From the NCBI GenBank assembly GCA_019633985.1, contig JAHQWE010000135.1, positions 1 to 37,074 on the forward strand: a DNA stretch of 37,074 bases, written 5' to 3'. The DNA is from Acidiferrobacterales bacterium. Its GTDB lineage: Bacteria > Pseudomonadota > Gammaproteobacteria > Arenicellales > Poriferihabitantaceae. The translations under genes were made by a program, and so were the position numbers. Of the stretch, positions 7,915-37,074 are shown piece after piece. Positions within the stretch are counted from its first letter, which is position 1. Each line of letters opens with the position of its first letter. The notes below the pieces were generated by a model. That model worked only from the letters and a program-made list of their open reading frames with translations, was not told where the DNA came from and did not search any database.

Positions 7915-8739
7915 ATGGTGTCTTTATCGCCATTCAAATGTAAGAAATCGACCATGCCAAAACACAAGAACGTCAAATACTACTTTGATGCTGAACTCGC
8001 CTCTCTGCTGAGCATCAAAATTTCGCGGGTATACGCGCAGTTTGACGCCGGATCATTTGAAGAAAGCACCACGGGGTGCGTTGGCCACCTGGAATACAAA
8101 GCCCGAGTCGCTGTTTTTGCTAGAGAGCTCAGAGCACATTTACCTGGCAGCTATCGCGATGCGCTAAAGGTGTTACTGGAAATACTCGGCCCCGAGAACA
8201 CCAAAGAAACGGGGATGTTTACAGAGGGATATTGGATCGCTCCTATTGCCTTTTTTGTCGAGACGTATGGCCTTAACGACTATGCAAGCTCCATGAAGGC
8301 AATTTCTGAAATCACAAAGAGACACACTAGCGAGTACGCTGTTAGACCGTACTTGCAGAGGCATCCAGATAGAACACTAGCGCAGATGATCCGATGGTCG
8401 AAAAGTAAAAACTTTCATCTTCGACGTCTCGCTTCGGAAGGTGTCAGGCCGCGTTTGCCATGGGCGAACATGCTTCCTCAATATGTAGAAGACCCTACTC
8501 CGATCCTTCCAATTTTAGAAAATCTAAAGGCGGACCAGGTGAAATACGTACAAAAATCGGTGGCTAACTGCATCAATGACATTCTCAAAGATCACCCCAA
8601 AACGGGCTTGAGCTTGGTCGGGAGATGGGCATCGAACTCTCCCACTGCAGAAACCCGGCGGATCCTACGACACAGTTTGAGAAGGTTAAAAAAAGCAGAA
8701 GATAAAAATGCCTTGCGGATTCTAAGAAAGATTGGTTAG
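7915..8739 (+). CDS. HEAT-repeat protein, possibly DNA alkylation repair (AlkC/AlkD-like) family
   Basis: All-helical repeat protein with RRLASEGVRPRLPW-type motif, recalled as resembling the DNA_alkylation family. Uncertain. Confidence 0.4.
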   Translation: MVSLSPFKCKKSTMPKHKNVKYYFDAELASLLSIKISRVYAQFDAGSFEESTTGCVGHLEYKARVAVFARELRAHLPGSYRDALKVLLEILGPENTKETGMFTEGYWIAPIAFFVETYGLNDYASSMKAISEITKRHTSEYAVRPYLQRHPDRTLAQMIRWSKSKNFHLRRLASEGVRPRLPWANMLPQYVEDPTPILPILENLKADQVKYVQKSVANCINDILKDHPKTGLSLVGRWASNSPTAETRRILRHSLRRLKKAEDKNALRILRKIG

Positions 8740-8752
8740 CCCGGTTTCTTGT

Positions 8753-9988
8753 ATGAGGTATTGCGGAATACAATGCACAGAGTATGGTCGACATCAATCG
8801 GAAGAGAGGTCAAGCTTGAAGCGTAATCCACAATCTGCAACTCCTGTAAAAGAAGTACTGAAGGATCTGGACATCGCCAACGGTCATTGTTTTGAAGACG
8901 CCGCGCCGATTCCTGCTTCCGCGAAGCATTCTTTGGATTTTTGCCAGCACGAGATTGATGCCATCTTTTCGAAGGAATGGATATGCATCGGGCGGGCGGA
9001 CGAATTACCAGATCCGGGAGACTACCTGACCCAAGATATCGCTGGCGTGTCCGTGATTATCGTCAAACAACGCTCTGGCGAAATTGCCGGATTCATTAAC
9101 GCTTGCGCGCATCGCCAAGCCTGTTTACTCGACAACAGCTCTGGTCACGCTAAAAAGATCACCTGCAGATACCATGCATGGAGCTACGATCTACAGGGAA
9201 AACTGATCTCCGCACCCTACATGGAGATGAAAGAAAATTTTGATCCGTCCAAGCATGCATTGCAGTCAATTCCGACTGAGATATGGGAGGGGTTTATCTA
9301 CGCCACATTATCTCAAAACCCGCAAACCAATTTGAAAAAATCGTTACTCCCCTTCAAACAAAAGGTGGTCGGACGCTACGGCATGAATTGCTATCAGACG
9401 GTTTTTCGCCGAACAATGAAATGGCATTCCAATTGGAAAAATCTGATCGAAAACTTTACTGAAAGCTACCATGTGCCGATGGTACACGGTGACACGTTTG
9501 CCAAACATGAAAAGCCCTTGCAGGCCTATGTATGCGGTGAAGATAGTGACTACTACGGATACCACTACGCTCCGCAAAAGTCTGACTCAGGTTTAGGTGC
9601 AGCGCATGCTAATAATAGCCGTCTGGAAGGGGAATGGAGAAGGACGATGGTAGATTTTTGCATATTTCCCTGTCACCTAGTGACCTTGATGCCAGACTAT
9701 CTCTGGTGGATATCTGTGCAACCGAGAGACGTAGACCAGCTGACTGCTCAATGGGGTGTTGCGCTACCGCCAGAAGTGCTCACCGACATTCCAGAAAATG
9801 ATTATCAACGATGGATTCGTGATTTCGAAACGTATATGGATGTGGCGAATGAAGAAGACAAAGAAATTGTGGAAGCTTTGCAAATTGGTACCGCCTCGCC
9901 AACTCTACCGCAGGGTTCACTCCATCCCCTTGAGCGCAATCTATGGCAATTCAATCAATATCTCGCTAAGAAATGTATACTGCGATAA
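8753..9988 (+). CDS. Rieske (2Fe-2S) non-heme iron oxygenase alpha subunit (GbcA/CntA/Stc2-like N-demethylase-type)
   Basis: Rieske motif CAHRQA...CRYHAW (CxH-x17-CxxH). Alpha-only size class of about 400 aa. The ORF track starts at a TTG (8732) that overlaps the upstream stop. The first ATG is at 8753. Confidence 0.85.
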   Translation: MRYCGIQCTEYGRHQSEERSSLKRNPQSATPVKEVLKDLDIANGHCFEDAAPIPASAKHSLDFCQHEIDAIFSKEWICIGRADELPDPGDYLTQDIAGVSVIIVKQRSGEIAGFINACAHRQACLLDNSSGHAKKITCRYHAWSYDLQGKLISAPYMEMKENFDPSKHALQSIPTEIWEGFIYATLSQNPQTNLKKSLLPFKQKVVGRYGMNCYQTVFRRTMKWHSNWKNLIENFTESYHVPMVHGDTFAKHEKPLQAYVCGEDSDYYGYHYAPQKSDSGLGAAHANNSRLEGEWRRTMVDFCIFPCHLVTLMPDYLWWISVQPRDVDQLTAQWGVALPPEVLTDIPENDYQRWIRDFETYMDVANEEDKEIVEALQIGTASPTLPQGSLHPLERNLWQFNQYLAKKCILR

Positions 9989-14040: not shown

Positions 14041-15174
14041 ATGAACAAGCAATTCGAACGACCGGATAAGTCGCTGGATCAATTTGACCCCAACGCCGAA
14101 CAGTCATTCACAATGCCCGCACGGATCTATTGCGATCCTGATTTCCTGGAACAGGAAAAACGACAGGTGTTCTGGAAATCCTGGATTTATGCCGGACACA
14201 TTAGTGCGTTAAGAGAACCTGGCGATTACATTACCTTAGATCTGACTGGCCAAAGGCTCTTTGTAATCCGCCAGGCAGACGGCGAGCTCGGCGGTTTTTT
14301 TAACGTATGCCAACATCGCGGTCACTCGCTCCTCAAAGGTAGCGGGAAAGCCCATCGACTCATTGTTTGCCCTTATCATGGCTGGTCCTATGACCAGACC
14401 GGCAAACTGATAGCCGCCAACAACTGCGATCAGGTCGCCCAGTTTCGACGAGAGGATTTCAGTCTGCCTTCAATCCATGTCGATCAAATCGCCGGGTTTG
14501 TCTTTGTGAATCTTGACCCGCAGGCGAAGCCAATGCGAGAGGTCTATCCAGGTGCTGAAGATAAGCTGAGGGAATTTTGTTTGAAGCCTGAGACTCTCAT
14601 TGCCGACGAAAACGTCGATTTTGATATCAAGGGTAACTGGAAAAACGTGGGCGATAATCTACTAGAGTGCTATCACTGCTCCACCGCGCACAAAGCCTTC
14701 GTCGATTTAGTGGATATGAATACTTATAAAGTGGAAACTCATCGGTACTGGTCTATTCAGTATGGCACATGCAGGCCAAACAACACAGCTTATGCTTATG
14801 ATGGCGACCATGAGCGACAAACTTTTGTCACACTTTATCTCTGGCCCAATATGTCTTTCACGCAATTCCCGGGCACGAAAGGCCTCTCTGTTTTTGCGTT
14901 CTATCCAACTGGCGCCGAGGACACCCATCAGATTTTTGCCTATCATCGCCCGCAATCGGAACCCACAAGCGCGGAGAAAGCCGCATTGAAATATTTTGCT
15001 GATGTGCTTGGCCCGGAAGATGTGGATCTCGTTGAAGATGTGCAGAAAGGCTTACACTCTCTGGGCTACCATCAAGGTCGTATTATGGTGGATGCTAAGC
15101 GAAGTGAAATCAGCGAACACGCGCTACACCACTTTCAAAATCTGGTGATGTCAGAAATGACTGAGTTTATTTAG
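14041..15174 (+). CDS. Rieske (2Fe-2S) non-heme iron oxygenase alpha subunit (second paralog)
   Basis: Rieske motif CQHRGH...CPYHGW. Mononuclear-iron catalytic domain of about 377 aa. Confidence 0.85.
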   Translation: MNKQFERPDKSLDQFDPNAEQSFTMPARIYCDPDFLEQEKRQVFWKSWIYAGHISALREPGDYITLDLTGQRLFVIRQADGELGGFFNVCQHRGHSLLKGSGKAHRLIVCPYHGWSYDQTGKLIAANNCDQVAQFRREDFSLPSIHVDQIAGFVFVNLDPQAKPMREVYPGAEDKLREFCLKPETLIADENVDFDIKGNWKNVGDNLLECYHCSTAHKAFVDLVDMNTYKVETHRYWSIQYGTCRPNNTAYAYDGDHERQTFVTLYLWPNMSFTQFPGTKGLSVFAFYPTGAEDTHQIFAYHRPQSEPTSAEKAALKYFADVLGPEDVDLVEDVQKGLHSLGYHQGRIMVDAKRSEISEHALHHFQNLVMSEMTEFI

Positions 15175-23048: not shown

Positions 23049-23555
23049 CTAGCAGCGGTCGATGGACGCTAACTTGAGTAGATCTTCATACAGCGGGAAT
23101 ATATTATTTTCCAACGCAACAAAATAGCGCAGCAACCCGACATCAATCGCGCGCATTTCATGCAAAAGCGCTTCCTCCTGCCACTTCTCAAGATTATCAC
23201 CCATCTCCAAGAGTCTTTCTGAGGATCTCTCTACTGATTTCAGGGCTACCTGTATTTTTCTGAACTGTGAACTGGTTTTAAGTTCGACAACATAGTTGTC
23301 GAGCAGACGATAAAGCTCCACCTCCTCCATTTCAAGATACGCAATCAACCCTGCGCTAAAACCAAGAAAGTGTGACTTAAAACTTTCAAGGTCGTCGTTT
23401 TGTAGTGCGCCGGTTGCGATCATCCCCCTCTTTCTCGTGATGTAAAACTGCCTCTTTATTTTGTCAACGAGATCGACATCCAAGTGATCGAGCCGTTTAC
23501 TCGAAATATCAAACTGCGTCTCTGAACGCGTGTTGGAATGAGTTCCCAAAAACAC
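23049..23555 (-). CDS. hypothetical alpha-helical protein (paralogous to upstream ORF; GTG start immediately after the upstream TAA)
   Basis: No recognised domain. Shares a YRLLD(N/D)xV motif with the 23556-24131 product. Confidence 0.4.
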   Translation of the reverse strand: MFLGTHSNTRSETQFDISSKRLDHLDVDLVDKIKRQFYITRKRGMIATGALQNDDLESFKSHFLGFSAGLIAYLEMEEVELYRLLDNYVVELKTSSQFRKIQVALKSVERSSERLLEMGDNLEKWQEEALLHEMRAIDVGLLRYFVALENNIFPLYEDLLKLASIDRC

Positions 23556-24131
23556 TTACCCAGCTTGTGCGAAGCTCAATGCATCTGAATTTTCACCCAC
23601 ATCAGTATTCAGTAGATCATGGCAGCAGGCGTGCAGCGCCCGCCTTTCTCTCTCGTAATGTGTGGAAACCTGAAAATCAATTTCGTAAACGGCAGATTCA
23701 AAAAACTGACAGCTCACATCGTCGACTGATTGATACTTGGCGAGAAATTTACTGACGTTTCTGTTTAGTTCGTACGCGCCCTTCTCCAGATGGAGAAACG
23801 CAGTATCAGTCTTTTCATACTTAAACTGCTCCAAGTTCAAGTACATACCAACGCTTACTAACTTAAGGTGATTCTTCAGCGCGGTACGATACAAAATAAA
23901 TCGACCCTGAATGGTATGTAACTCTTCTGAAGCGATCGCGCGTGCCAAGCTAGAAAAACTGGAAGATAAAAAAGTCTTGCTTGCGACAATGTCATCCAGC
24001 AATCGATAAACGTTTTGGGCCGCGTTTAACGCATCACCTTTGTTTACTTCCTGCCACCCTGGCGAACGGAATTGAGGTTGTATGTACATCTTTTTTCTCG
24101 TTTTATAATTTGTGAAAATGGATAACTGCAA
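23556..24131 (-). CDS. hypothetical alpha-helical protein
   Basis: No recognised domain. Shares a YRLLDD motif with the downstream in-frame ORF. His-rich HxxxE-like spacing (HLEKG...HYERE...HACCHD), reminiscent of but not diagnostic for a hemerythrin-like fold. Confidence 0.45.
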   Translation of the reverse strand: MQLSIFTNYKTRKKMYIQPQFRSPGWQEVNKGDALNAAQNVYRLLDDIVASKTFLSSSFSSLARAIASEELHTIQGRFILYRTALKNHLKLVSVGMYLNLEQFKYEKTDTAFLHLEKGAYELNRNVSKFLAKYQSVDDVSCQFFESAVYEIDFQVSTHYERERRALHACCHDLLNTDVGENSDALSFAQAG

Positions 24132-24320
24132 ACATCGCTGTTCACATCACCGTGTTAATTCTCTAACTGTCTGGTTTTTTTTGCTTTTCGGGTAACATTC
24201 AAAGATAGACTACTCAAGTTGAAGTGAGTCGTTCGAATAGTTGAACTCACATTAACAAATCCAACAAAGCCACACCGAACACTAGTCACCGTCGCATTAA
24301 CCGCTGCTGAAGACACGTGA

Positions 24321-24794
24321 TTATTTAAAAACAAGCACTCCACCATGTGCCCGACAGACAATCAATTCCGATTTTTTTTCTACCACTGATCGACTCACTC
24401 TTCTTTTTAATTTGTTCCAGATATCCATCGCCTGCATGGCATTGTCTTCAGCTACTGCGATAGCAATGACAGGAAGATTATCTGGAATATGATGGGAGAG
24501 AAGTCGACGGACTAGACGACCAAGCTGCTCTGCGTTTTTAAAATCACAGCCCTGGACTATCATTGATAGTCTGTTGTTTTGAACGTATACGCTAGCGCGT
24601 TCACTAACGTGTGCAGTAGAAGTCGCCATGGCGATTACCTCGCGCCAGTCTGTGCCTGAGTCAGGCACAGACTGGTGACGCGGATCAGAAACCGATCGGC
24701 AGATATGTACGATGGTAAATGGATAATTCGCCCCCAGTTGAATTGAATTAAGGAGCTTTAGGAATGCGCTGGCGGAAATGTTGTTGTTTTCCAA
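24321..24794 (-). CDS. hypothetical protein (157 aa) downstream of the two-component operon
   Basis: Open frame with an ATG start. No recognisable motif. Confidence 0.4.
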   Translation of the reverse strand: MENNNISASAFLKLLNSIQLGANYPFTIVHICRSVSDPRHQSVPDSGTDWREVIAMATSTAHVSERASVYVQNNRLSMIVQGCDFKNAEQLGRLVRRLLSHHIPDNLPVIAIAVAEDNAMQAMDIWNKLKRRVSRSVVEKKSELIVCRAHGGVLVFK

Positions 24795-24958: not shown

Positions 24959-25576
24959 TCAAGCGGAATGAATGTTACAGATTTTTGCGAGCTCGACCAG
25001 ATGAGTGATAGACGCCGCATCCATTTTTGACATTACCCGAGCACGATATTCATCGACGGTCCGATGGCTGATCTTTAGCTTACGCGCAATCTCTTTGTTC
25101 GACTGAGTTGCTACCCCTGCAACCAGTTCAGCCATAACCTGACGCTCGCGCTGGGTGAGCGTTTCGAACAATTGCAACGTATGTTGCTTAAGTTTTACCT
25201 GGTGCTGGGTGGCCTCATCTTTCGCTAACGCTTCCTTTAATCGATCCAGCAATGTATCCGTTGCGTAAGGTTTTTCCAAAAACTCGATGGCCCCACTTTT
25301 AATTGCATGTACGGAGGTTGGAATATCTCCATGACCGGTGACAAAAATTATGGGTATTTCCTGGTTGCGCTCGCCAAGTGCCGCCTGCACCTCCAAACCA
25401 GACATACCGGGCATGGCAATATCCAAAACCAAACAGCTCGGATGTACTTGTGAAAAGTTATCCAGAAAATCGTTTCCGCTCTCATACTCTTCGACCAGAT
25501 AGCCATGATGTGTCAGCGAGCGGGCCAGGCTTTTCCTGACTGCGCTGTCATCATCAACTACGTATACGGTATGCAC
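24959..25576 (-). CDS. two-component response regulator, FixJ/LuxR family (REC plus LuxR-type HTH)
   Basis: REC motifs VYVVDDD...LVLDIAMPGMSGLE...IIFVTGHGD. C-terminal LTQRERQVMAELVAGVATQSNKEIARKLKISHRTVDEYRARVMSKM. Confidence 0.92.
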   Translation of the reverse strand: MHTVYVVDDDSAVRKSLARSLTHHGYLVEEYESGNDFLDNFSQVHPSCLVLDIAMPGMSGLEVQAALGERNQEIPIIFVTGHGDIPTSVHAIKSGAIEFLEKPYATDTLLDRLKEALAKDEATQHQVKLKQHTLQLFETLTQRERQVMAELVAGVATQSNKEIARKLKISHRTVDEYRARVMSKMDAASITHLVELAKICNIHSA

Positions 25577-25580
25577 TGTT

Positions 25581-27164
25581 TTACTCCATTGCTGGCTTGT
25601 TTCTCACTGGAATTCGAATATGAAATGTTGTTCCTTTATTTTTTTCTGTCTCGCACTTAAGCGTACCACCGAGGTTCTCGACAATAGATCTACATATCGA
25701 CAAACCAAGTCCCATCCCCTTGGATTTGCCGGTAACGAACGGTTGAAAAAGATCTTTCATCACGTTCTCGGCAATTCCCGGCCCTGTATCCAAAACCGAA
25801 ACCAAAATAGTATTGGGCTTAATGTGTTGGGTACGAATGGTCACCAAACCCCGGTTGGTTTTTGCATCTGAGATCGACTCTATTGCATTTCTGCACAGGT
25901 TGACAAGCACTTGCTGCATTTGAATGGAGTCCAAAACGGTTTTCGGTAAATCTTGCGCTGGGAAAAAGTGTATGCCCACATTGGCTGCCCGTGCTTCAGG
26001 ACGGATAAGCTTTTCTGTAGAAACGATCAAACTATTGAGATCACAGAGAGTGATGTCACCAGGTTCTTTACGAATAAGATGGCGTAATCCACGAATGATT
26101 TCTCCTGCGCGCTGAGCTGAATCATTATTCTCATTGAGAATTTCTACGATCTCCAGATCAGGTGAATCTTTGCTTTTTTCAATAGAAATAGCAGTCTCAC
26201 AGTTATGACTGATGACGGTAAGAGGCTGATTCAATTCATGTGCCAAACCCGAAGCCATTTCCCCTAATGTGTTAAGTCGGGCCACATGGGCGAGTTCCAT
26301 TGATCGTTTTCTGTTTTCCTCCTCCAGTCTCTTCCTCGCACTGATATCATTTACGGTCGCCAAGACCACTCTCTTCTCCGGAAAATCAATCGGGATCAAA
26401 CTGATTTCCACAGGGAAAGCAGAGCCGTCTTTACGTATAGCAGAAAGTTCCTGTTCGATTCCCATTGGACGCACATTTCCATGCGCAAAAAAACCCTCCC
26501 TGTCCGCTGAGTGATGATTCCGCGTTTCTCCAGGCACCAAAGAATCTACATTGAGATCACACAATTCATCAGAAGTATATCCAAACAACTTCTCCATCAT
26601 ATCGTTGGCATATTCAATTTGGCCTTCTTTATTCACAATGACAATTCCGTCAGGAGCTTGTGCCAGAAAGGTACGAAGCTGACTCTCAGTTCTCTTGAGG
26701 TTTTCAGTGACAGTTTGCTGCGCCACAATCTCCGCCTGTAGTTTTGCGTTTAGTGCCTGTAGTTCTGCAGGAGATTTAAGTTCCGCCAGCTTCGGCAAAG
26801 TCGGCCATAATAGTGCCGCCGTGCCGGTAGAAATCAATGCGGTAAACCCTTTGGTGATTCCATGAATACCATAGCTGCCAGACCAAACCGTCCAGATTCC
26901 CATAAAGTGGGTCACTCCACAGGCGGCGATAAACAGCGAAAACATGATCATCATTGATCGAAACGGTAATAAAGGCCGCTGCCTGTAGAACAGATATAAC
27001 GTAATCGGAATCGAAAAATAGGCGATTGCAATGACACCGTCGGATAAAACGTTTAACCACAAGATATCTGGCCGCCAAAGGTAGCATTGACCATGGGGCA
27101 TATAGTTTGTCCAGAAGTTCAGATTGCCAGTTTCCATCGATATTTCCTCGGTCAGATATCGCAT
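25581..27164 (-). CDS. sensor histidine kinase with an N-terminal ethylene-binding-domain (ETR1-like, Cu-dependent) transmembrane sensor, PAS domain, and HisKA/HATPase
   Basis: The N-terminus aligns with the Arabidopsis ETR1 ethylene-binding domain: LSDGVIAIAYFSIPITLYLF...PFR...FIAACGVTHFMGIWTVW against ISDFFIAIAYFSIPLELIYF...PYR...FIVLCGATHLINLWTF. The Cu-ligand Cys-x3-His (ETR1 C65/H69) is conserved. A PAS domain follows (PDGIVIVNKEGQIEYAN), then an H-box ELAHVARLNTLGEMASGLAHELNQP, then HATPase N/G boxes. Sits 4 nt upstream of the FixJ-type regulator gene. Confidence 0.9.
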   Translation of the reverse strand: MRYLTEEISMETGNLNFWTNYMPHGQCYLWRPDILWLNVLSDGVIAIAYFSIPITLYLFYRQRPLLPFRSMMIMFSLFIAACGVTHFMGIWTVWSGSYGIHGITKGFTALISTGTAALLWPTLPKLAELKSPAELQALNAKLQAEIVAQQTVTENLKRTESQLRTFLAQAPDGIVIVNKEGQIEYANDMMEKLFGYTSDELCDLNVDSLVPGETRNHHSADREGFFAHGNVRPMGIEQELSAIRKDGSAFPVEISLIPIDFPEKRVVLATVNDISARKRLEEENRKRSMELAHVARLNTLGEMASGLAHELNQPLTVISHNCETAISIEKSKDSPDLEIVEILNENNDSAQRAGEIIRGLRHLIRKEPGDITLCDLNSLIVSTEKLIRPEARAANVGIHFFPAQDLPKTVLDSIQMQQVLVNLCRNAIESISDAKTNRGLVTIRTQHIKPNTILVSVLDTGPGIAENVMKDLFQPFVTGKSKGMGLGLSICRSIVENLGGTLKCETEKNKGTTFHIRIPVRNKPAME

Positions 27165-29149: not shown

Positions 29150-30151
29150 GTGACACTCCTCGTCGTTTTTGTAGCGTTAGCTATTATCGTGTCGTTTTAC
29201 TGCTCTTTATTAGAGTCAGCTTTCCTGAGCATTACCCCGGCTTCGGTTCAGGTCTATCTGAAAGAACACCCAAAGAAAGGCGCTAAACTGGTGCAACTAA
29301 AAGAGGAAGTCGACCGCCCGCTGGCGGCGATTTTGAGCTTGAACACGATCGCGCACACACTCGGTGCAACAGGAGCAGGAGCACAAGCGGCCATACTCTT
29401 TGGCAATCAGTGGATTGCTATTTTTTCGGCATTGCTGACGCTTGCCATTCTCATTCTGAGCGAAGTCATTCCAAAAACACTGGGCGCCGTTCACTGGCGC
29501 AGGCTCATTGGCTTCGTAGTAAACACTCTGCCCCTTTTAATCGCGCTCACCTACCCCCTCGTTTGGCTCTCGGTTGCGATAAGCTCATTGCTTCGTCACA
29601 GGAAACCTCGACAAATTATGCGCAGCGAAATCCACGCGATTGCCGAATTGGGCGAACAGGAGGGGGCAATTTCGAAAGAGGAGTCGGCATTTATCCAATC
29701 ACTGCTCAAATTTAAGGATATTACCGTAGACGAAGTGATGACCCCCATCAGCGTGGTCGCTTCCGTGCAGGAATCTGAAAAAGTGGAACAAGTACTAGAT
29801 CAGGACATCCCGTTCTCCCGCATTCCGCTGTACCGCAATGAGTCGAACCAAATTACGGGTTATATTCTGAAAGATGATCTTCACGAGCTGGTAGAGGACA
29901 ACGAGACCGCTGTGCCGGTTGCGGCATTCAAGCGATCTATTTTCAGTATGGACTCTCGCTCAGATCTCCCTCACGCGATCAACTACTTTTCCAAAAACCG
30001 CGACCATATCGCGGTAGCCACAGATAAATCAGGGCAAGCTGTAGGGATCATTACTCTGGAAGATGCGGTGGAAACCCTTTTGGGGTGGGAAATCGTTGAT
30101 GAATTTGATCCGGTTCCCGACATGCGCAAGCTCGCGAAGAACATTGACTAG
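29150..30151 (+). CDS. CNNM (DUF21) transmembrane domain plus CBS-pair protein (HlyC/CorC-like transporter lacking the CorC_HlyC C-terminal domain)
   Basis: N-terminal DUF21 with four TM helices (ILSEVIPKTLG). A CBS pair (VDEVMTPISVV...) follows. GTG start in the ORF track. Confidence 0.8.
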   Translation: MTLLVVFVALAIIVSFYCSLLESAFLSITPASVQVYLKEHPKKGAKLVQLKEEVDRPLAAILSLNTIAHTLGATGAGAQAAILFGNQWIAIFSALLTLAILILSEVIPKTLGAVHWRRLIGFVVNTLPLLIALTYPLVWLSVAISSLLRHRKPRQIMRSEIHAIAELGEQEGAISKEESAFIQSLLKFKDITVDEVMTPISVVASVQESEKVEQVLDQDIPFSRIPLYRNESNQITGYILKDDLHELVEDNETAVPVAAFKRSIFSMDSRSDLPHAINYFSKNRDHIAVATDKSGQAVGIITLEDAVETLLGWEIVDEFDPVPDMRKLAKNID

Positions 30152-30209
30152 CCCTGGCTGTATACTGAAATAGCCAGCCGGTGCAACTGACCTAACCGGG
30201 CTCAAATCT

Positions 30210-30992
30210 TTACCGCATATTGCGCCCACCATCAAACATGATCGTTTGACCAGTGACAAAGGCCGTTGACTCCGACGCCAGCAACTTTACAAATTGCGCA
30301 GTTTCCTGATTCGAAGTCATACGCCTTAAGGGAGTACTCTCGACCACGGATTGGATCTGCTCCTCGCTGTACAGCGCTTGTACCAAAGGAGAGTCAACAA
30401 AACCAAGACCAACGCCGTTTACTCGAATCGTCGGACCGAGTTCCAAAGCCATACACTTGGTCAACATATTCAACCCAGCCTTCGAAGCGCAGTAGTTCGC
30501 CGCATTTGCTCGTCCTTGTGTGGTAGTGGTTGCAGAGATATTCACAATCACCCCACCCCGACCTTTCACCATCTGCTTGGCCACACGTTGAGATACTAAA
30601 AATGGCCCTTTCAAATTAGCAGCAATCACTGTATCCCAGGCATTTTCTGTCATCTCAAGAAATGATCCGTCCCTGCTTAGCCCCGCATTATTGACGAGAA
30701 TATCGATGCCGCCGTAGTGATCCATAATTTGCTCAATCATCGATTTCACTTCAGTCACATTGGAGATATCTGCTTTACACGCAAACGCTTTTCCTCCACT
30801 AACCTCTATTTCTGAGACCACCTGATTCGCGCCCTCTTCAGAATGGGCATAGTTTACGCATACGCTTGCGCCCTGAGCGCCAAATGCCCGGGCGATATAG
30901 CATCCAAGGCCTCGCCCGGCACCTGTGACCAACACGGATTTATTTTTAAATTCTGTCATTTTATTGTTTTCTATTAGTACTCGCCTATTCAT
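30210..30992 (-). CDS. SDR family NAD(P)-dependent oxidoreductase
   Basis: TGAGRGLG cofactor motif, NNAG, and a YCASK catalytic block. Start is probably the internal Met (MTEFKNKSVLVTG). Confidence 0.9.
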   Translation of the reverse strand: MNRRVLIENNKMTEFKNKSVLVTGAGRGLGCYIARAFGAQGASVCVNYAHSEEGANQVVSEIEVSGGKAFACKADISNVTEVKSMIEQIMDHYGGIDILVNNAGLSRDGSFLEMTENAWDTVIAANLKGPFLVSQRVAKQMVKGRGGVIVNISATTTTQGRANAANYCASKAGLNMLTKCMALELGPTIRVNGVGLGFVDSPLVQALYSEEQIQSVVESTPLRRMTSNQETAQFVKLLASESTAFVTGQTIMFDGGRNMR

Positions 30993-31007
30993 TGAGTAAC
31001 AGGCGAA

Positions 31008-31919
31008 TCATTGATGGGGATTAACCAAAGATTGCAGGTTACAGATGTGTTCCCTGCGGACACCGCAGCAACCACCAATTACCTGCACACCACGTGCCAG
31101 CCATTTCTTGGAATTCAACTTGTAGTCTTCGGGCGATATGTTATCGTCAAACACTGCGTTGCCGCCTTCAAAGCGACAGGTATGGGCGTACACCCCAATT
31201 TTCCCCTGCCAATGTGTTTGCAAAATATCCAGGCACGCTTCGATATGCTCCACCTCTGTGTGCATAATATTGATCAGTGGAACATTCTTGTCTTTGATCA
31301 CACGCACCGCTTCGATCAGAGATTCACCACCCAACAGTCGCATTTCACCATTGATGGGTTTCAAGGAAAGGCCTGCCCATACCGGCAGTCCTGCGGCTGC
31401 TGCACCGTCAATACAGGCAATTAATTTGTCAATATGGCTCAACATCTCGAGTACGATCAGGTCGCATCCTCCCTCGGCCATGAGCATCGCCTGATCTTTA
31501 CTATTTTCCTCGAGCTCCTTCAGTGAAGGCGGGTTATCAGTCCAAATCCAGTGGGTGATTCCGCCAGCGATCAGCACCTCAGGTTTACCCTGATTTCGTC
31601 GGGCATCCTGTGCCAACTGCACCGCAGCCCTGGTCAGCGATTCGAATCGATCCTCTATCCCTGCCGATCTCATCGCATGTCGGGAAGAGCTGAATGTGTT
31701 GGTGATAATCATTTCAGCACCGCACTCAATGTATTCCTCATGGATAGTGCGGACGATCTCCGGATGGGACAACGCGGCGCCGCTGTTCCAAATATTCATC
31801 ACATGAGGAACGCCGCGTCTCTCGCACTCGGTTCCTGTGGCGCCGTCAATGAGTATGCGTTCTCCATTCTCAATTCGAGTAATTAACGCATTGTATGCAG
31901 CTGTCGGCATGTGACTCAA
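31008..31919 (-). CDS. homocysteine S-methyltransferase family protein (Zn-dependent; BHMT/MmuM-like)
   Basis: S-methyl_trans blocks ILIDGATGTE...IITNTF...GGCCG (zinc-binding Cys motif). Confidence 0.85.
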   Translation of the reverse strand: MSHMPTAAYNALITRIENGERILIDGATGTECERRGVPHVMNIWNSGAALSHPEIVRTIHEEYIECGAEMIITNTFSSSRHAMRSAGIEDRFESLTRAAVQLAQDARRNQGKPEVLIAGGITHWIWTDNPPSLKELEENSKDQAMLMAEGGCDLIVLEMLSHIDKLIACIDGAAAAGLPVWAGLSLKPINGEMRLLGGESLIEAVRVIKDKNVPLINIMHTEVEHIEACLDILQTHWQGKIGVYAHTCRFEGGNAVFDDNISPEDYKLNSKKWLARGVQVIGGCCGVRREHICNLQSLVNPHQ

Positions 31920-32066
31920 AGAATTCGGCAGTTAACAAAACATATAGCGACATTCGCCTCTGCTATTTCAGCCTATCTGTCACGGAAACACAAATGCGCC
32001 GAATTGGTCACAGTTAATTCAAAACCGACTTACACCGTGAATCGAGCAAGCAAAGTGCAGGTCGAA

Positions 32067-32642
32067 TTATTGCAGGCCGCGCACAAGCGCTGAGAGTTGG
32101 TCTACAGAAGCGCCAAAAGGCGATATTGCCTTGAACTGCCCGTCGCGATCCAAAACCACAATGTGAATAGAGTGATCAATTGTGTAATTCTCTCCTGCTG
32201 TTCGGCGGTATCGGATGTTGTACTGTTCGGCGACTCGAGCGATGTCTTCATCAGACCCCGTTAACCCAATGATATCTGGATGAAAGAACTGTACATACTG
32301 CCCAATTTTATCAGGGCTATCTCGTTGCGGATCCAGAGTGACAAAAACACCGGCGACCTGATCAGCGCCCACCTCTCGAATCGTCTTACCTATGGTATTT
32401 AATTCCAACGGACAAATATCGGGGCAATTGAGGAAGCCGAAATAAAGCAGGACTTTGCGACCGCGTAACTGTTCAAGTTCAAACAAGTCGCCGTGTTGAT
32501 CAGTGAGCGTAAAATCACCGCCCAGCTTTTTCTCTGCGTTCGCTGAAAAGAAAGGTGTGATGAGAAAAATGAAAATCAGCCAGAAGCGCGGTATCCATGC
32601 CGTCGCCACAAAGTACAAGCCAGTTGGTTCAGCTTGATTCAC
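32067..32642 (-). CDS. SCO1/SenC family copper chaperone (thioredoxin fold)
   Basis: CPDICP (CxxxC) motif plus a downstream His. N-terminal TM anchor. Overlaps the upstream gene by 4 nt (ATGA). Confidence 0.85.
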   Translation of the reverse strand: MNQAEPTGLYFVATAWIPRFWLIFIFLITPFFSANAEKKLGGDFTLTDQHGDLFELEQLRGRKVLLYFGFLNCPDICPLELNTIGKTIREVGADQVAGVFVTLDPQRDSPDKIGQYVQFFHPDIIGLTGSDEDIARVAEQYNIRYRRTAGENYTIDHSIHIVVLDRDGQFKAISPFGASVDQLSALVRGLQ

Positions 32643-34555
32643 TGCGCCTGATAGCCGGGATCGCCAATGGGAGCCGTAAAGGCATCTGATACCAGTATAT
32701 CGATATCGTGGCTGGTCAACGAATTCAAAAACGCTTCAATCGCATTCAATTCGCTTTCTGCGAGCCCCAATGGTCGAATTAGTGGGCTTTGCAATTCATG
32801 GGGCACACCACCCTGGTTATAGAATTCGAGAACTTCCCTTAACGTCCCAAATTCACCGTTGTGCATGTATGGGGCGGTCAACGCGATATTTCTGAGCGTT
32901 GGGGTTCTGAACTTCCAGCGGTCCGCGGGGTTTTCTGTGACCTCATATTGACCAACATCTGATGGTTTCTTTTCTCCGACGGTTGCAATGTATTCCGGGT
33001 CAACGTCTAGAAACACGCCAGGGGCAAGGGTGATGCGTTTGGCAATTTCATTTTTCTGAATGGAGTTCTTGTAACCCAGACCGGTGTTGTGAAGCAGGTT
33101 ATCACTAAACAGAGCCTGGTTATTCTGCACCAGGTGACAGCCAGAGCAACCTGCCTTGCCATCAAACAATTCGAAACCTTGTTTTGCTTCTGCACTCATC
33201 GCGTTCGGCTGATTGTCATATAACCAGCGATCAAACGGGGAATCTGCGGCGATCAACGTTCTTTGATAACTCGCCAGGGCCTGCCCTAGATTCTCCATTC
33301 CAACTTTTTCCCCATCAAATGCCTCTTCAAATAGGCCGTCGTAGTCTGCAAAGGAACGAATTTTTTTCAACACATATCCCACAGAAGGATTTGCCATTTC
33401 ATTCCTGGCAAGCAACGGGCTCCATACCTGTTGTTCCAGATTCTCTTCCCGGCCATCATGAAACAAGGTCGACAAATATCCAACGTTGTATAAGGTTGGT
33501 GAATTCCTTCTGACAGATCGGCCCTCAACACCAACGGCGGTTGAAATCTCATTGCTGGTAAAACCCTGCTCGGGGATATGACACATCGCACAGGAAAAGG
33601 TGTCGTTAATCGATAGCCTCCTGTCAAAAAACAGTTTCCGACCCAGCTCTATTTTTTTCTGCGTTAGCGGATTATTTTCAGGAACGGGGAGTTCAGGTAA
33701 TCCATTCACTTTCCTCTGAGCCAACTTAAACAAATCTGCCTTGACCCCCAACCGACTTTCTAATGCCAAGCTTTTCGTCGTATAACTCTTTGACTCATAA
33801 CCTTGTTTGTAATCCCCAGGTTGAGAAAGTGTGCTGCCCGCAAGTTGCATCTGCGGCTGATCAGATTCTCCCTCGAGCATCAGTGTTTTGACATCTGCAA
33901 TTAGTAAATCCGCATGCAAAAAACTGACGCTGTAGATATTTCGTATAGTGAGGGATTCGTCTATCAAGAAAACTTTGAGCAGATGAGACAACTCTACAGT
34001 TTCCTCACCATCGCTCACGATAAACTGTCGCTGCACATCCTGATCGTAGTCAATCAAAATCGGTGCAAGCTCTGTGATCGAATCCGTCGTTAGAAAATGC
34101 CAACTCCCCGCACTGCCAGCATATTTAAAATTGTCTGCGTAAAGTCGCATGACTTCAGGGGTGTCAACTTCAGGATCAAAACTTAAACTCACAAGCTGAA
34201 GCTGTTTAGATAGCGCTTCATCCGCTTCCATTGCAGATTTGATCTTGTAAAACACATAGGAAGACAGAGGGCAACCGTTGATATCGTTGCAGCTGCTGTA
34301 CATAAAACTGAGCAGCGTCAGCTTGCCAGAAAACACCTGATGTAAAGTGGTCTCGCCGCCGTTAGAATCCAGTACCCTGCCATCAGGTGCAACGCCAATA
34401 TTTGACAGATCATAACTGCCGGGGGTCGGAGGAGCGTAATCCAAAGCGCCATACCCTATTGCAGACTGCTGGGCGAAAGCGCTTGAACAAATTGCGATAA
34501 GACCTAGGCAAAGCCTGATCTTAGCTATGCAGCTTTTCAGAATGAATTGGTGCAT
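32639..34555 (-). CDS. fusion protein: N-terminal SCO1/SenC-like domain plus C-terminal di-heme cytochrome c peroxidase/MauG-like domain
   Basis: Signal peptide. A thioredoxin-like N-terminal half (~230 aa) resembling SCO/SenC but with Cys spacing CNDINGC. Two CXXCH heme motifs (CAMCH, CSGCH) lie in a CCP/MauG-type C-terminal half (~330 aa). Confidence 0.8.
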   Translation of the reverse strand: MHQFILKSCIAKIRLCLGLIAICSSAFAQQSAIGYGALDYAPPTPGSYDLSNIGVAPDGRVLDSNGGETTLHQVFSGKLTLLSFMYSSCNDINGCPLSSYVFYKIKSAMEADEALSKQLQLVSLSFDPEVDTPEVMRLYADNFKYAGSAGSWHFLTTDSITELAPILIDYDQDVQRQFIVSDGEETVELSHLLKVFLIDESLTIRNIYSVSFLHADLLIADVKTLMLEGESDQPQMQLAGSTLSQPGDYKQGYESKSYTTKSLALESRLGVKADLFKLAQRKVNGLPELPVPENNPLTQKKIELGRKLFFDRRLSINDTFSCAMCHIPEQGFTSNEISTAVGVEGRSVRRNSPTLYNVGYLSTLFHDGREENLEQQVWSPLLARNEMANPSVGYVLKKIRSFADYDGLFEEAFDGEKVGMENLGQALASYQRTLIAADSPFDRWLYDNQPNAMSAEAKQGFELFDGKAGCSGCHLVQNNQALFSDNLLHNTGLGYKNSIQKNEIAKRITLAPGVFLDVDPEYIATVGEKKPSDVGQYEVTENPADRWKFRTPTLRNIALTAPYMHNGEFGTLREVLEFYNQGGVPHELQSPLIRPLGLAESELNAIEAFLNSLTSHDIDILVSDAFTAPIGDPGYQAQ

Positions 34556-34608
34556 ATCGACTTTTAGACCAATGAAGTGTGCTGGCTTTGTGTGAGACCA
34601 ACACGAGT

Positions 34609-34635
34609 TGAAGTGCCCTGATTCAGGGCACTTCA
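34609..34635. repeat. 27-nt near-perfect palindrome (TGAAGTGCCCTGATTCAGGGCACTTCA) between the SBP56 gene and the SCO-MauG gene
   Basis: Seen directly. An intra-operon hairpin without a U-tract. Candidate attenuator, RNA-stability element or operator. Confidence 0.5.
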
Positions 34636-34649
34636 GTCTGCCGTGACGG

Positions 34650-36050
34650 CTAGTCGGTCACGCTGGTTGCAGCCAGGTGTTTTTGATCATCCAGAATAGA
34701 TGAATTGGCGTACAGAGAGTAAGCACCAAATCGCATTTGATGTGAACGCCCCAGTTTCTCGGCATAAAAATCGATAGCGAACTCTTCTTTCAGTTCCTTA
34801 CCGTCCCAGGTATAGGCTTTGAAATACTGCTCATCCGCATCGTCCTTTTTGTCCCAGTTCGCCAGCAAAGAACTCGTATAGTACTGCCGCTTACCATCCC
34901 AGCTGCCAGAGACCATGTTGATTTGGCTACCGATTACCTTCTCATAAACCTGCTTCGGGTTCTCCGGATCGCTCATATCAAAGAAACGGGTTTTTCCATC
35001 GCTGAAGGTGTTCACAAAGAAACCAGAATCATCCGACAGAATCGAAAAGTCTACTGGCAAAGGTACTTTAGATGGATCACCAATCGTACCTATGGACTTC
35101 GCCTGCCATTCACCGGCACTGTCTTCATAGATCATCCAGATTTGTGAAGTCAGTGCTGTGGTCGTCAAACACCAGTTATGATTTGGCTGCCATGCACAGC
35201 GAAGCTCCAGTGGCGCTCCCGGTACGTCGAGCACCTTCTTAGGCTTACGCGCGTGCAAATCCCAGACGACGACAGTATTGCCGAAGCGCTTCATTGCTTC
35301 AGCGTCTCCCAGCATCTGCCCAAAATCCATCATGTAGTTTGACCATCCGGTAAAGGAGGAAGTTACCATGATGTTCTTGCGCGGCAGCGCACGAACGTCA
35401 TAACCATAGCCATCTGCGAATTGTCCACCCTTCACAGCGCCCTGCAGGTTTTCATCGGTAGGCATCCAGTGGGTTGCAACGTATTCACCTGCATTGGTGT
35501 ATTCCACCATCGCAGTGCGACCACCGTTGTCTTTATTGTTCGACAACCCTGTAATCATCATCCGACCGGGCAAGGCGTATGTGGTATGTGGTCCAACGAC
35601 TCCACCACTGTCAGAGACAAACGTGTCGATCGTCTGGCTCAAGGTTGGTTTTGCCGGATCTGTATGAACGTCAAATATAAAAATCTTGTTGGTATCCAGA
35701 CCGCCAGCCCAAAGGTACTTTCGATCATCGGTGAACCCAGAGTGATGGGCTTCATTGCGGCCGCCAACGGATAAGCTGTTGATCACAGTACCATAAGAAG
35801 CGGAAGATGGATTGACATCGATCGTCACCAGCTTGTCTTGCCCGTCTCCGAGGCCCTCTACACCGAGAGTCCAAACGTAGACAAAATCTTCTTGCCCCGT
35901 GATCTTCGCCATATACGGCGACATGCAGGTTTCATCTGCATATGCAGTGTTGGAAATCCCAACAGCGGCGGCAGACAGTCCAAATAATCCTGCGAGAATA
36001 GTGCGCCCTAGGAGAGCGCTAGGTGGTTTTCTAAAGGTGTTCAATTTCAT
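34650..36050 (-). CDS. mtoX: selenium-binding protein (SBP56) family, putative Cu-dependent methanethiol oxidase
   Basis: Clear homology to SELENBP1/SBP56: TIDVNPSSASYGTVINSLSVGGRNEAHHSGFT against human [34 protein letters not shown], and YYTSSLLANWDKKDD against ITTSLYSAWDKQFYPD. Signal peptide present. Encoded directly upstream of SCO1-MauG and SCO1 genes, which is the published mtoX genomic signature. Confidence 0.8.
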   Translation of the reverse strand: MKLNTFRKPPSALLGRTILAGLFGLSAAAVGISNTAYADETCMSPYMAKITGQEDFVYVWTLGVEGLGDGQDKLVTIDVNPSSASYGTVINSLSVGGRNEAHHSGFTDDRKYLWAGGLDTNKIFIFDVHTDPAKPTLSQTIDTFVSDSGGVVGPHTTYALPGRMMITGLSNNKDNGGRTAMVEYTNAGEYVATHWMPTDENLQGAVKGGQFADGYGYDVRALPRKNIMVTSSFTGWSNYMMDFGQMLGDAEAMKRFGNTVVVWDLHARKPKKVLDVPGAPLELRCAWQPNHNWCLTTTALTSQIWMIYEDSAGEWQAKSIGTIGDPSKVPLPVDFSILSDDSGFFVNTFSDGKTRFFDMSDPENPKQVYEKVIGSQINMVSGSWDGKRQYYTSSLLANWDKKDDADEQYFKAYTWDGKELKEEFAIDFYAEKLGRSHQMRFGAYSLYANSSILDDQKHLAATSVTD

Positions 36051-36071
36051 TTTTTATTACTCCATGTTTCT

Positions 36072-36785
36072 TTAAGGCTTTACAGTGCTAAATCCAAGGA
36101 TTTCCCACGCCTGCATGCCGTCTCGGTACCATTTGATATTTTCAGCCGGATACCCAAACTTCAGCAACGTACGAATACTGGCAGGTGACTGACCACACCA
36201 CATGCCATTACAGAACAGAACCAATGTTTTTGCATTTCCATAGTCGAATACTTCGGAAACTGTGCCATTGGCAATCGCTTCGTCAATCGCTATTTCATCC
36301 GCTCCTGACGCCAGACCAACATTGAAGTCTTCTGTCATTACTTTGGTAATACCCTCAGTCGTAGCACCTTTGGCCGGCGTTAATTCGGTCCAGGAGATAT
36401 TGACTGCTCCAGGTATGGTCCCTTTCGCTACCCAGTCAGGGGTACGGGAGTCGATCAGCATAATATTTTTGTCGCCTGCTTCCATTTTCTTGACATAGTC
36501 AATGAGCTCTAACTCTCCAAGTGTTTCCACACCTTCGGCCAGCGTCATAGGCTGAATACAAAAAGGCGGACAAGGTCGTGAAGTTTTCGCAAATGCATCG
36601 ATCACGGTGTTGCCGTTATCCTGATTTCGCACAATTTCGGTTTTAGCGCCGTTATGGGTCACTGAGACCGACATCATATCTGGGGTAATACCCACCGGTT
36701 TGGCATCCGCTGCGAACGCGGAAGGGGCTGACAAAGTAAAAGTCAGTAGTGTTGATAGTAGTATTGCTTTGTTTTTCATTCTCAA
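36072..36785 (-). CDS. periplasmic rhodanese-like domain protein (sulfurtransferase)
   Basis: Signal peptide. Rhodanese blocks LIDSRTPDWVAKGTIPGAVNI and an active-site loop FCNGMWCGQS. 21 nt upstream of the SBP56 gene. Confidence 0.8.
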   Translation of the reverse strand: MRMKNKAILLSTLLTFTLSAPSAFAADAKPVGITPDMMSVSVTHNGAKTEIVRNQDNGNTVIDAFAKTSRPCPPFCIQPMTLAEGVETLGELELIDYVKKMEAGDKNIMLIDSRTPDWVAKGTIPGAVNISWTELTPAKGATTEGITKVMTEDFNVGLASGADEIAIDEAIANGTVSEVFDYGNAKTLVLFCNGMWCGQSPASIRTLLKFGYPAENIKWYRDGMQAWEILGFSTVKP

Positions 36786-36817
36786 TTCCTCTTGGGTTCA
36801 GTTATATTTTTAATTCA

Positions 36818-37006
36818 TTAACATTCCGGATCTTCATCATCACCGGATTCGGTTTCGTCATCCCCTTCAGTTGACTGAAAATCAATCATGGCAGACCCAG
36901 ATATTGGGACTGATACATCCGCGGATGAAACAGCAACGTTAGTGCTAAATATAAAAAGCACTAACAAAAAGAGAAGATTCATCCGTTTTATGGCTTTACT
37001 GTACAT
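36818..37006 (-). CDS. small secreted protein with an acidic Cys-terminated tail (62 aa)
   Basis: Signal-peptide-like N-terminus and a GDDETESGDDEDPEC tail. First gene of the putative rhodanese-mtoX operon. Could be spurious. Confidence 0.3.
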   Translation of the reverse strand: MYSKAIKRMNLLFLLVLFIFSTNVAVSSADVSVPISGSAMIDFQSTEGDDETESGDDEDPEC

Positions 37007-37074
37007 AGTTAACTCCTGAAATTGGTTCTAGTGACGCACCAACGGAAATTTTCCGAACTCCCCTGTACGTTGAG

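Follow-up and report, generated by a model that had tools for sequence, protein, structure and literature searches.

Two conserved units lie end to end in an Acidiferrobacterales contig: a methanethiol oxidase cluster and a peptide-rhodanese pair with a putative role in sulfane-sulfur relay

The contig JAHQWE010000135.1 (assembly GCA_019633985.1) of an Acidiferrobacterales metagenome-assembled genome was analysed over its whole length of 37,074 bp, which is referred to here as the window. Five closely packed genes on its minus strand, read from 37006 to 32067, encode a small acidic peptide, a rhodanese, a protein of the SBP56 family, a fusion of a SCO-like with a MauG-like domain and a stand-alone SCO protein. 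Is this one pathway for the oxidation of methanethiol, or are separate systems placed side by side? A first-pass annotation of the DNA had proposed the five-gene layout and read it as one dedicated operon. All open reading frames (ORFs) and domains of that layout are confirmed, the latter with Pfam and NCBIfam scores far above the curated cut-offs. The locus, however, consists of two independently conserved units joined end to end. Unit A is the pair of peptide and rhodanese genes and unit B is a standard cluster around mtoX, the gene of methanethiol oxidase (MTO). The peptide-rhodanese pair is a real, strongly conserved two-gene unit of many marine Gammaproteobacteria.

The linkage of the two units was inspected from both sides. 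Eighty related mtoX loci were fetched from species-representative genomes with flanks of 8 kb on either side (MtoX 71–85% identical). This set includes Candidatus Poriferihabitaceae, Thiodiazotropha, Sedimenticola, Cocleimonas and methanotrophs. Homologues of the rhodanese and the peptide are present in none of these 80 loci. Conversely, mtoX, SCO or MauG genes are found in none of 84 loci centred on a homologue of the rhodanese. One genome, OZ241878.1, has both units, with mtoX and the rhodanese gene 1.4 Mb apart. Thus, the pair is not part of the mtoX system. This agrees with the earlier remark that rhodanese and peptide stand outside the described core, whereas a rhodanese-SBP56 linkage conserved across genomes, which had also been considered, is not observed. 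On present evidence, the attachment of the pair to mtoX is unique to the Acidiferrobacterales lineage and no general property of either unit.

A single dedicated operon, in which rhodanese and peptide are integral and serve to remove the sulfide or persulfide that the oxidase produces, would agree with the layout in the window. All five genes lie on one strand, and the spacers on the upstream side are short: 38 nt separate the peptide gene from the rhodanese ATG and 21 nt, holding only a ribosome-binding site, separate the rhodanese gene from mtoX. The N-termini of all five products are basic and hydrophobic and resemble Sec signals, as judged from the translations. Furthermore, sulfane sulfur, reported as a product of MTO (PMC10936201), is a natural substrate of a rhodanese. 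The distribution of the genes argues against a single operon. The linkage is missing in 80/80 mtoX loci and 84/84 rhodanese loci, the pair has a conserved neighbourhood of its own elsewhere, and the units are apart in the genome that has both. The word rhodanese does not occur in PMC5739008, PMC6548844 or PMC10936201. A dedicated five-gene operon is therefore unlikely, and the pair is better described as an independent two-gene module that occurs in unrelated neighbourhoods. Scans of positions 30000–37074 are uninformative on transcription units (4 promoter-like sites against 9.0 in shuffled sequence; 8 terminator-like sites against 7.4 by chance). Only 68 nt of the contig precede the peptide gene, so that the promoter side lies outside the sequence.

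The SBP56 protein of unit B is a true MtoX as judged from its sequence; methanethiol oxidation itself is predicted. The 466-aa precursor contains an SBP56 domain (Pfam, 152.7 bits) and matches the NCBIfam MtoX equivalog NF052453 (MthilOxMtoX) with 769.9 bits (cut-off 650) over model positions 1–407 of 408. Clade grouping was judged by percent identity to plasmid proteins in PLSDB. The best match is MtoX of the Ruegeria pomeroyi DSS-3 megaplasmid (71.3% identity over residues 36–442), followed by five more alphaproteobacterial MtoX homologues at 59–66%; all other SBP56 proteins are at 24–28%. This distribution of identities is bimodal with the window protein on the MtoX side. Because of the equivalog score and the gap between 71.3% and 24–28%, the protein is placed in the MtoX clade and not with other SBP56 clades, and the first-pass assignment of a methanethiol oxidase locus of the SBP56, SCO1/SenC and MauG type holds. 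Inactivation of mtoX in R. pomeroyi DSS-3 showed that the gene is needed for methanethiol removal (PMC5739008). The histidines corresponding to the proposed copper ligands of the Hyphomicrobium VS enzyme (His89, His90, His140 and His412; PMC5739008) are present as His102, His103, His155 and His437. Four residues past the likely signal-peptide cut, Cys42 is part of a TCMSPYM motif; the cysteine of the corresponding TCQSPYM is reported to bind methanethiol in the enzyme of R. pomeroyi (PMC10936201). The motif ETC[QM]SPYM is kept in 80/80 relatives, and the copper histidines and the motif cysteine are kept in 77–80 of the 80. In the public annotation the window MtoX is named "selenium-binding family protein".

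The 638-aa product of the next gene combines an N-terminal SCO1-SenC domain (Pfam, 45.6 bits, cut-off 22.8) with a C-terminal CCP_MauG domain (168.7 bits). Its SCO-like half has no canonical CxxxC and instead carries Cys89-N-D-I-N-G-Cys95 (C-x5-C). The pattern C-x-D-[VI]-N-G-C-P-L is common to the SCO-like half of all fusion homologues in the related mtoX loci, and the fused domain may be something other than a classical copper chaperone. The MauG-like half has two CxxCH haem motifs (CAMCH at 322 and CSGCH at 470), which are also conserved. Its scores are below the equivalog cut-offs of MauG (197.6 against 443.85, TIGR03791) and MbnH (251.2 against 362.85, TIGR04039); by these scores the fusion resembles MauG but is orthologous to neither. 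The public annotation has a shorter, 601-aa model of this protein under the name "SCO family protein". The start of the stand-alone SCO gene overlaps the stop codon of the fusion by 4 nt. Its 191-aa product (SCO1-SenC, 138.6 bits) has the canonical Cys73-P-D-I-Cys77 and a histidine in Asp156-H-S; the stand-alone SCO proteins of related loci keep CPD[IV]CP.

Fusion and extra SCO had been regarded as peculiarities of this locus. They are the norm among the gammaproteobacterial relatives and are already published. A full-length fusion directly follows mtoX in 60 of the 62 loci with enough downstream sequence. A stand-alone SCO gene comes next in 39 of these 60, and five others have a divergent SCO gene upstream. 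Eyice et al. described SCO1/SenC and MauG fused in one gene of Methylophaga thiooxydans (PMC5739008). According to Kröber and Schäfer, both clusters of this organism consist of mtoX, a SCO1-MauG fusion and a stand-alone SCO1/TlpA-like gene (PMC6548844).

The spacer between mtoX and the fusion gene (94 nt) folds at -36.4 kcal/mol. It contains a perfect hairpin, GAAGTGCCCTG-aat-CAGGGCACTTC, located 15 nt past the mtoX stop codon. A strong hairpin (< -20 kcal/mol) is present within 90 nt after mtoX in 60/69 related loci, where its sequence is not conserved; in 46/69 its z-score is below -2 in comparison with shuffled sequence. The hairpin is probably an intra-operon attenuator or an mRNA stabiliser. 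It fits a differential expression of enzyme and helper genes and would probably keep the message of the enzyme more abundant than those of the helpers.

The smaller gene of unit A encodes a peptide of 62 aa. Its N-terminus is hydrophobic and resembles a signal sequence, and its acidic tail ends in GDDEDPEC, with cysteine as the last residue. An AGGAG site is located 7 nt before its ATG. It is the only ORF ending in [DE]P[DE]C in the 37-kb window. The possibility that this ORF is not a gene was rejected on the grounds of tail conservation, independent gene calls and the ribosome-binding site. The first three genomes inspected besides this one have a small gene without Pfam match about 100 nt before the rhodanese gene, and the products end in EEEEEEPDC, EEDEEPDCD and EEEEEDPDC.

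The same kind of tail recurs throughout the 84 rhodanese loci. An ORF ending in [DE]P[DE]C[DE]? is present in 52 of them and one ending in DEDDC in 2. A further 13 have a Sel1-repeat protein ending in EDPEDDC, encoded just downstream or on the opposite strand. In total, 67/84 loci have an acidic, cysteine-ended partner, and the flanks are truncated in 10 of the remaining 17. As a control, 1.01 Mb of six-frame-translated DNA from the mtoX loci contains no match to either tail motif. When 51 tails are anchored at the cysteine, Glu occupies position -3 in 48, Pro position -2 in 49 and Asp or Glu position -1 in all 51. The cysteine is followed by Asp (33), by Glu (10) or by no residue (8). Selenocysteine variants of the tail (E-P-D-TGA) are absent from the 84 loci.

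The tail is attached to three unrelated bodies, namely a disordered acidic stretch, a four-cysteine motif and Sel1 repeats. Since these bodies share it, the tail, the only part that is conserved, is the selected one. The four-cysteine type (about 60 aa, WCExNxDxCxxWCESNPExEIC[KQ]EPECD) comes from open-ocean metagenomes, in which it is encoded upstream of the rhodanese (loci L146, L147, L149, L150, L153, L155, L156, L159–L161, L164 and L165). Presumably, it folds into a hairpin that is stapled by disulfides and carries this tail. The partner proteins match no Pfam or NCBIfam family beyond noise, except for the Sel1 repeat in one body type. In the literature searched, neither a periplasmic rhodanese whose partner has a C-terminal cysteine nor a rhodanese beside mtoX is described. 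The pair is apparently undescribed.

The second member of unit A is a sulfurtransferase by its domain (Pfam Rhodanese, 45.5 bits, cut-off 22.2) and its active-site cysteine; activity is predicted. The better start is an ATG behind an AGAGGA site, as in the NCBI model. Two motifs, Cys72-P-P-F-Cys76 in an N-terminal extension and Cys192-N-G-M-W-Cys197 in the active-site loop, are invariant in 26 homologues with 67–78% identity. Homologues with 56–82% identity number in the thousands. The family is distinct: with a threshold of E ≤ 1e-3 it has 807 members among 1.84 billion cluster representatives (50% identity), and with E ≤ 1e-30 it has 84. One of its members, P0121 (449 aa), matches in two stretches and is a tandem duplication. 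A sequence search against the PDB gave nothing below E = 0.18. The AlphaFold2 model has a mean predicted local distance difference test score (pLDDT) of 73.8 with a confident rhodanese domain. Its best Foldseek matches are single-domain sulfurtransferases such as yeast RDL2 and Bacillus halodurans BH2092, and these matches are weak (E ≥ 0.025). At six places with distant homologues that do not have Cys192 and/or Cys197, no acidic, cysteine-ended neighbour is present. This is a weak hint that the partner may go with the two-cysteine loop; those homologues are also more distant.

The CPPFC motif raises the question of whether the pair handles metal instead of sulfur. The motif is similar to the CxxxC copper site of SCO proteins. 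The acidic tail with its cysteine might bind copper or another cation, and beside mtoX the pair would help to supply copper. In the wider family CPPFC is the most conserved motif, ahead of the rhodanese cysteine. Additionally, the pair adjoins copper chaperones and a copper enzyme in the window, and a cation-efflux gene is close to it in Cocleimonas flava. Copper or other metal genes are, however, not recurrent among the neighbours in the 84 loci, the partner is found just with those homologues that keep the active-site cysteines of a rhodanese, and the peptides have no histidine- or methionine-rich metal motifs. A role in metal handling is thus very unlikely.

In the closest relatives (rhodanese 71–78% identical) the gene order is thioredoxin-fold protein, peroxiredoxin, ArsR-type (HTH_5) regulator, peptide, rhodanese and CBS protein. 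ArsR-type regulators beside rhodaneses are typical of sulfide/persulfide stress operons, for example those of BigR and SqrR, and by this analogy the context is a lead towards a role in sulfide or persulfide stress. In other genomes the pair is located among housekeeping genes, with a TlpA-like thioredoxin gene upstream in 11 of the 84 loci.

These neighbours would also be expected of a periplasmic thiol-redox or peroxide-defence device in which the peptide is a sacrificial or recyclable thiol. Its adjacency to mtoX would then be accidental or directed against the H2O2 of the oxidase. Hydrogen peroxide is a product of the classical MTO reaction (PMC5739008, PMC13603461), and peroxiredoxin, thioredoxin-fold protein and regulator flank the pair in the closest relatives, with the TlpA-like thioredoxin of the 11 loci in addition. 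The redox neighbours are confined to these relatives, and elsewhere the pair is located among housekeeping genes. Proteins with a rhodanese fold are not known to act as peroxidases. A redox or peroxide-defence function is considered very unlikely.

The reading preferred here, with moderate confidence, is that of a standard mtoX cluster joined to a stand-alone pair that has a role in sulfane-sulfur relay and is coupled to mtoX in this lineage. MtoX would be exported to the periplasm, with fusion and canonical SCO as presumed maturation and copper-loading factors. The rhodanese would take up sulfane sulfur on Cys192 and exchange it, in one direction or the other, with the cysteine at the end of the acidic tail. 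Resolving or regenerating thiols could be provided by Cys197 and/or the CPPFC pair, and the tail protein would serve as a mobile persulfide carrier in the periplasm, a compartment without glutathione. In the window, unit A is probably co-transcribed with mtoX and would receive the sulfur removed from methanethiol; the pair could do so because it is located 21 nt upstream of mtoX and probably shares its transcript. For MTOs of the R. pomeroyi type, the release of sulfane sulfur is reported to proceed through an enzyme-S-S-CH3 intermediate on an N-terminal cysteine (PMC10936201). Since this cysteine is conserved here, the coupling becomes more plausible. A rhodanese acting as a sink for the sulfur product, as the first-pass annotation had suggested, is thus plausible for the Acidiferrobacterales lineage only. 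A bolder version, which is possible and rather doubtful, holds that the proteins ending in E-P-(D/E)-C form a new, gene-encoded class of persulfide carriers in the periplasm, loaded by a dedicated rhodanese with a two-cysteine loop and, in this lineage, wired directly to MtoX.

Several points weigh against the relay and its coupling to mtoX. The flanks of the mtoX loci extend over just 8 kb, and the 84 rhodanese loci, collected via the DNA patterns [LM]FCNGMW and DSRTPDWV, represent a close subfamily only. The relay is the most likely role of unit A as judged from fold, motifs and neighbours, and the probable co-transcription with mtoX is deduced from the spacing. Among homologues with identities as low as about 30%, at least 90% retain CPPFC while several have lost Cys192 and Cys197, so that the CxxxC motif rather than Cys192 may be the core of the family. 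Residues 30–80 of the AlphaFold2 model have pLDDT values of 50–60, and the placement of CPPFC relative to the active site is not readable from it. An overall charge complementarity of tail and rhodanese was considered and rejected, as both proteins are acidic (isoelectric points of 4.65 for the rhodanese and 4.05 for the peptide). Finally, the chemistry of the sulfur product of MTO is unsettled: the release of sulfane sulfur (PMC10936201) is disputed by a study from 2026 that reports H2S and H2O2 as products (PMC13603461).

The positions of the features are collected in Table 1.

Table 1. Positions of the genes and other features in the window and of the gene order in the closest relatives of the rhodanese.
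Feature	Position	Strand	Basis
Small secreted-looking acidic protein, 62 aa	36818..37006	-	ORF; NCBI hypothetical protein MBX2870206.1
Single-domain rhodanese, predicted periplasmic, 235 aa from ATG 36779 (237 aa from TTG start of the ORF)	36072..36785	-	Pfam Rhodanese
Methanethiol oxidase MtoX, 466-aa precursor	34650..36050	-	NCBIfam NF052453
Hairpin, perfect 11-bp stem and 3-nt loop	34610..34634	-	Sequence and folding
SCO-like/MauG-like di-haem fusion, 638 aa	32639..34555	-	Pfam SCO1-SenC and CCP_MauG
Stand-alone SCO1/SenC copper chaperone, 191 aa	32067..32642	-	Pfam SCO1-SenC
Homocysteine S-methyltransferase-domain protein, 303 aa, ATG 31910	31008..31919	-	Pfam S-methyl_trans
ETR1-like histidine kinase and LuxR-type response regulator	25581-27164, 24959-25576 region	-	
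ORF of 512 aa and three consecutive ORFs of 157-191 aa	15270-16808, 23049-24794	-	No Pfam match at E ≤ 1e-5
MttB-family methyltransferase, two Rieske-type oxygenases, OpuAC-type betaine ABC transporter	5243-6817, 8732-9988, 14041-15174, 18974-22749		
Gene order of the closest relatives (thioredoxin-fold protein to CBS protein)	L174 1158-4019; L085 6532-8705; L086-L088; L082		

About 150 nt beyond the stand-alone SCO gene and on the same strand follows the gene of a homocysteine S-methyltransferase-domain protein (S-methyl_trans, 163.8 bits). The first-pass annotation had connected it with the metabolism of methyl-sulfur compounds. Its adjacency to the cluster is correct, and a conserved link to mtoX is not observed: none of the 80 mtoX loci has a homologue within 8 kb. 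The protein scores below every NCBIfam equivalog cut-off (130.4 against 453, 111.7 against 215 and 80.9 against 338). The methyltransferase (0/80) and a short-chain dehydrogenase/reductase (SDR) were both rejected as conserved mtoX neighbours; SDR-like matches occur in 2/80 loci and are weak (27–30% identity).

Other genes of the contig code for a methyltransferase of the MttB family (635.6 bits), for two Rieske-type oxygenases and for a betaine transporter. It looks like a region for the catabolism of quaternary amines or onium compounds, and the methyltransferase-domain gene may be a part of onium-compound breakdown and not of the mtoX cluster. The histidine kinase listed in Table 1 has an N-terminal domain that matches the copper-dependent ethylene-binding domain of the receptor ETR1 (118.8 bits) and a PAS domain, and the response regulator gene follows it on the same strand. 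A 512-aa ORF and three consecutive smaller ones have no Pfam match at the threshold given in Table 1.

What does the locus add? With respect to mtoX, one lineage, Acidiferrobacterales, is added to a well-known system, and the name "selenium-binding family protein" is corrected. The real gain is the peptide-rhodanese pair, which is widespread in marine Gammaproteobacteria and apparently undescribed. Should persulfide sulfur be carried on the tail cysteine, the pair would amount to a simple and testable periplasmic sulfur-carrier system. Its position beside mtoX furthermore provides a natural test case for the two proposed outcomes of the MTO reaction, H2S plus H2O2 (PMC13603461) or sulfane sulfur (PMC10936201). 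If the pair does accept sulfur from MtoX, the contested release of sulfane sulfur rather than H2S would gain independent support from genomics.

Among known systems, unit B is most similar to mto-clusters 1 and 2 of M. thiooxydans, which consist of mtoX, a sco1/mauG fusion, a SCO1/TlpA-like gene, pdo, sqrB and sulP (PMC6548844, PMC5739008). MtoX precursor, SCO-MauG fusion and stand-alone SCO or TlpA-like protein are encoded in the same order, with signal peptides. In M. thiooxydans the products of these three genes have signal peptides, and all three genes are induced on dimethylsulfide (PMC6548844). The window differs downstream, where genes of a methyltransferase-domain protein and an SDR take the place of those for persulfide dioxygenase, sulfide:quinone reductase (SQR) and SulP. 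It also differs upstream, where the peptide-rhodanese pair precedes mtoX, an arrangement unreported for Methylophaga. With R. pomeroyi DSS-3 (SPOA0268–0272) and Hyphomicrobium sp. VS the window shares an orthologous MtoX (71.3% identity to SPOA0269) with identical copper-ligand histidines and TC(Q/M)SPYM cysteine, and linked SCO and MauG functions. In roseobacters an IclR regulator is encoded upstream of mtoX (PMC5739008). SCO and MauG are separate genes in R. pomeroyi and Hyphomicrobium sp. VS, whereas the window has the fusion and a second SCO.

In the closest relatives the pair stands behind an ArsR-type (HTH_5) gene, and in this respect it resembles the ArsR- or CsoR-controlled operons for persulfide detoxification. 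Such operons (BigR-Blh, SqrR and CstR-CstA/CstB) are cytoplasmic and include a persulfide dioxygenase or SQR. Neither of these enzymes is seen here, and the regulator side of the pair lies beyond the contig end.

The likeness of the pair to other sulfur carriers is one of working principle, in that a periplasmic protein offers a cysteine at or near its C-terminus to a partner enzyme; there is no sequence relationship. SoxYZ (with the GGCGG of SoxY) and DsrC carry sulfur on a cysteine of a flexible C-terminal arm, and Sud of Wolinella succinogenes is a periplasmic polysulfide carrier with a rhodanese fold. Unlike these proteins, the pair has a poly-acidic E-P-(D/E)-C(D/E) tail mounted on three unrelated bodies, and its rhodanese is distinguished by the additional CPPFC motif and by an active-site loop with two cysteines.

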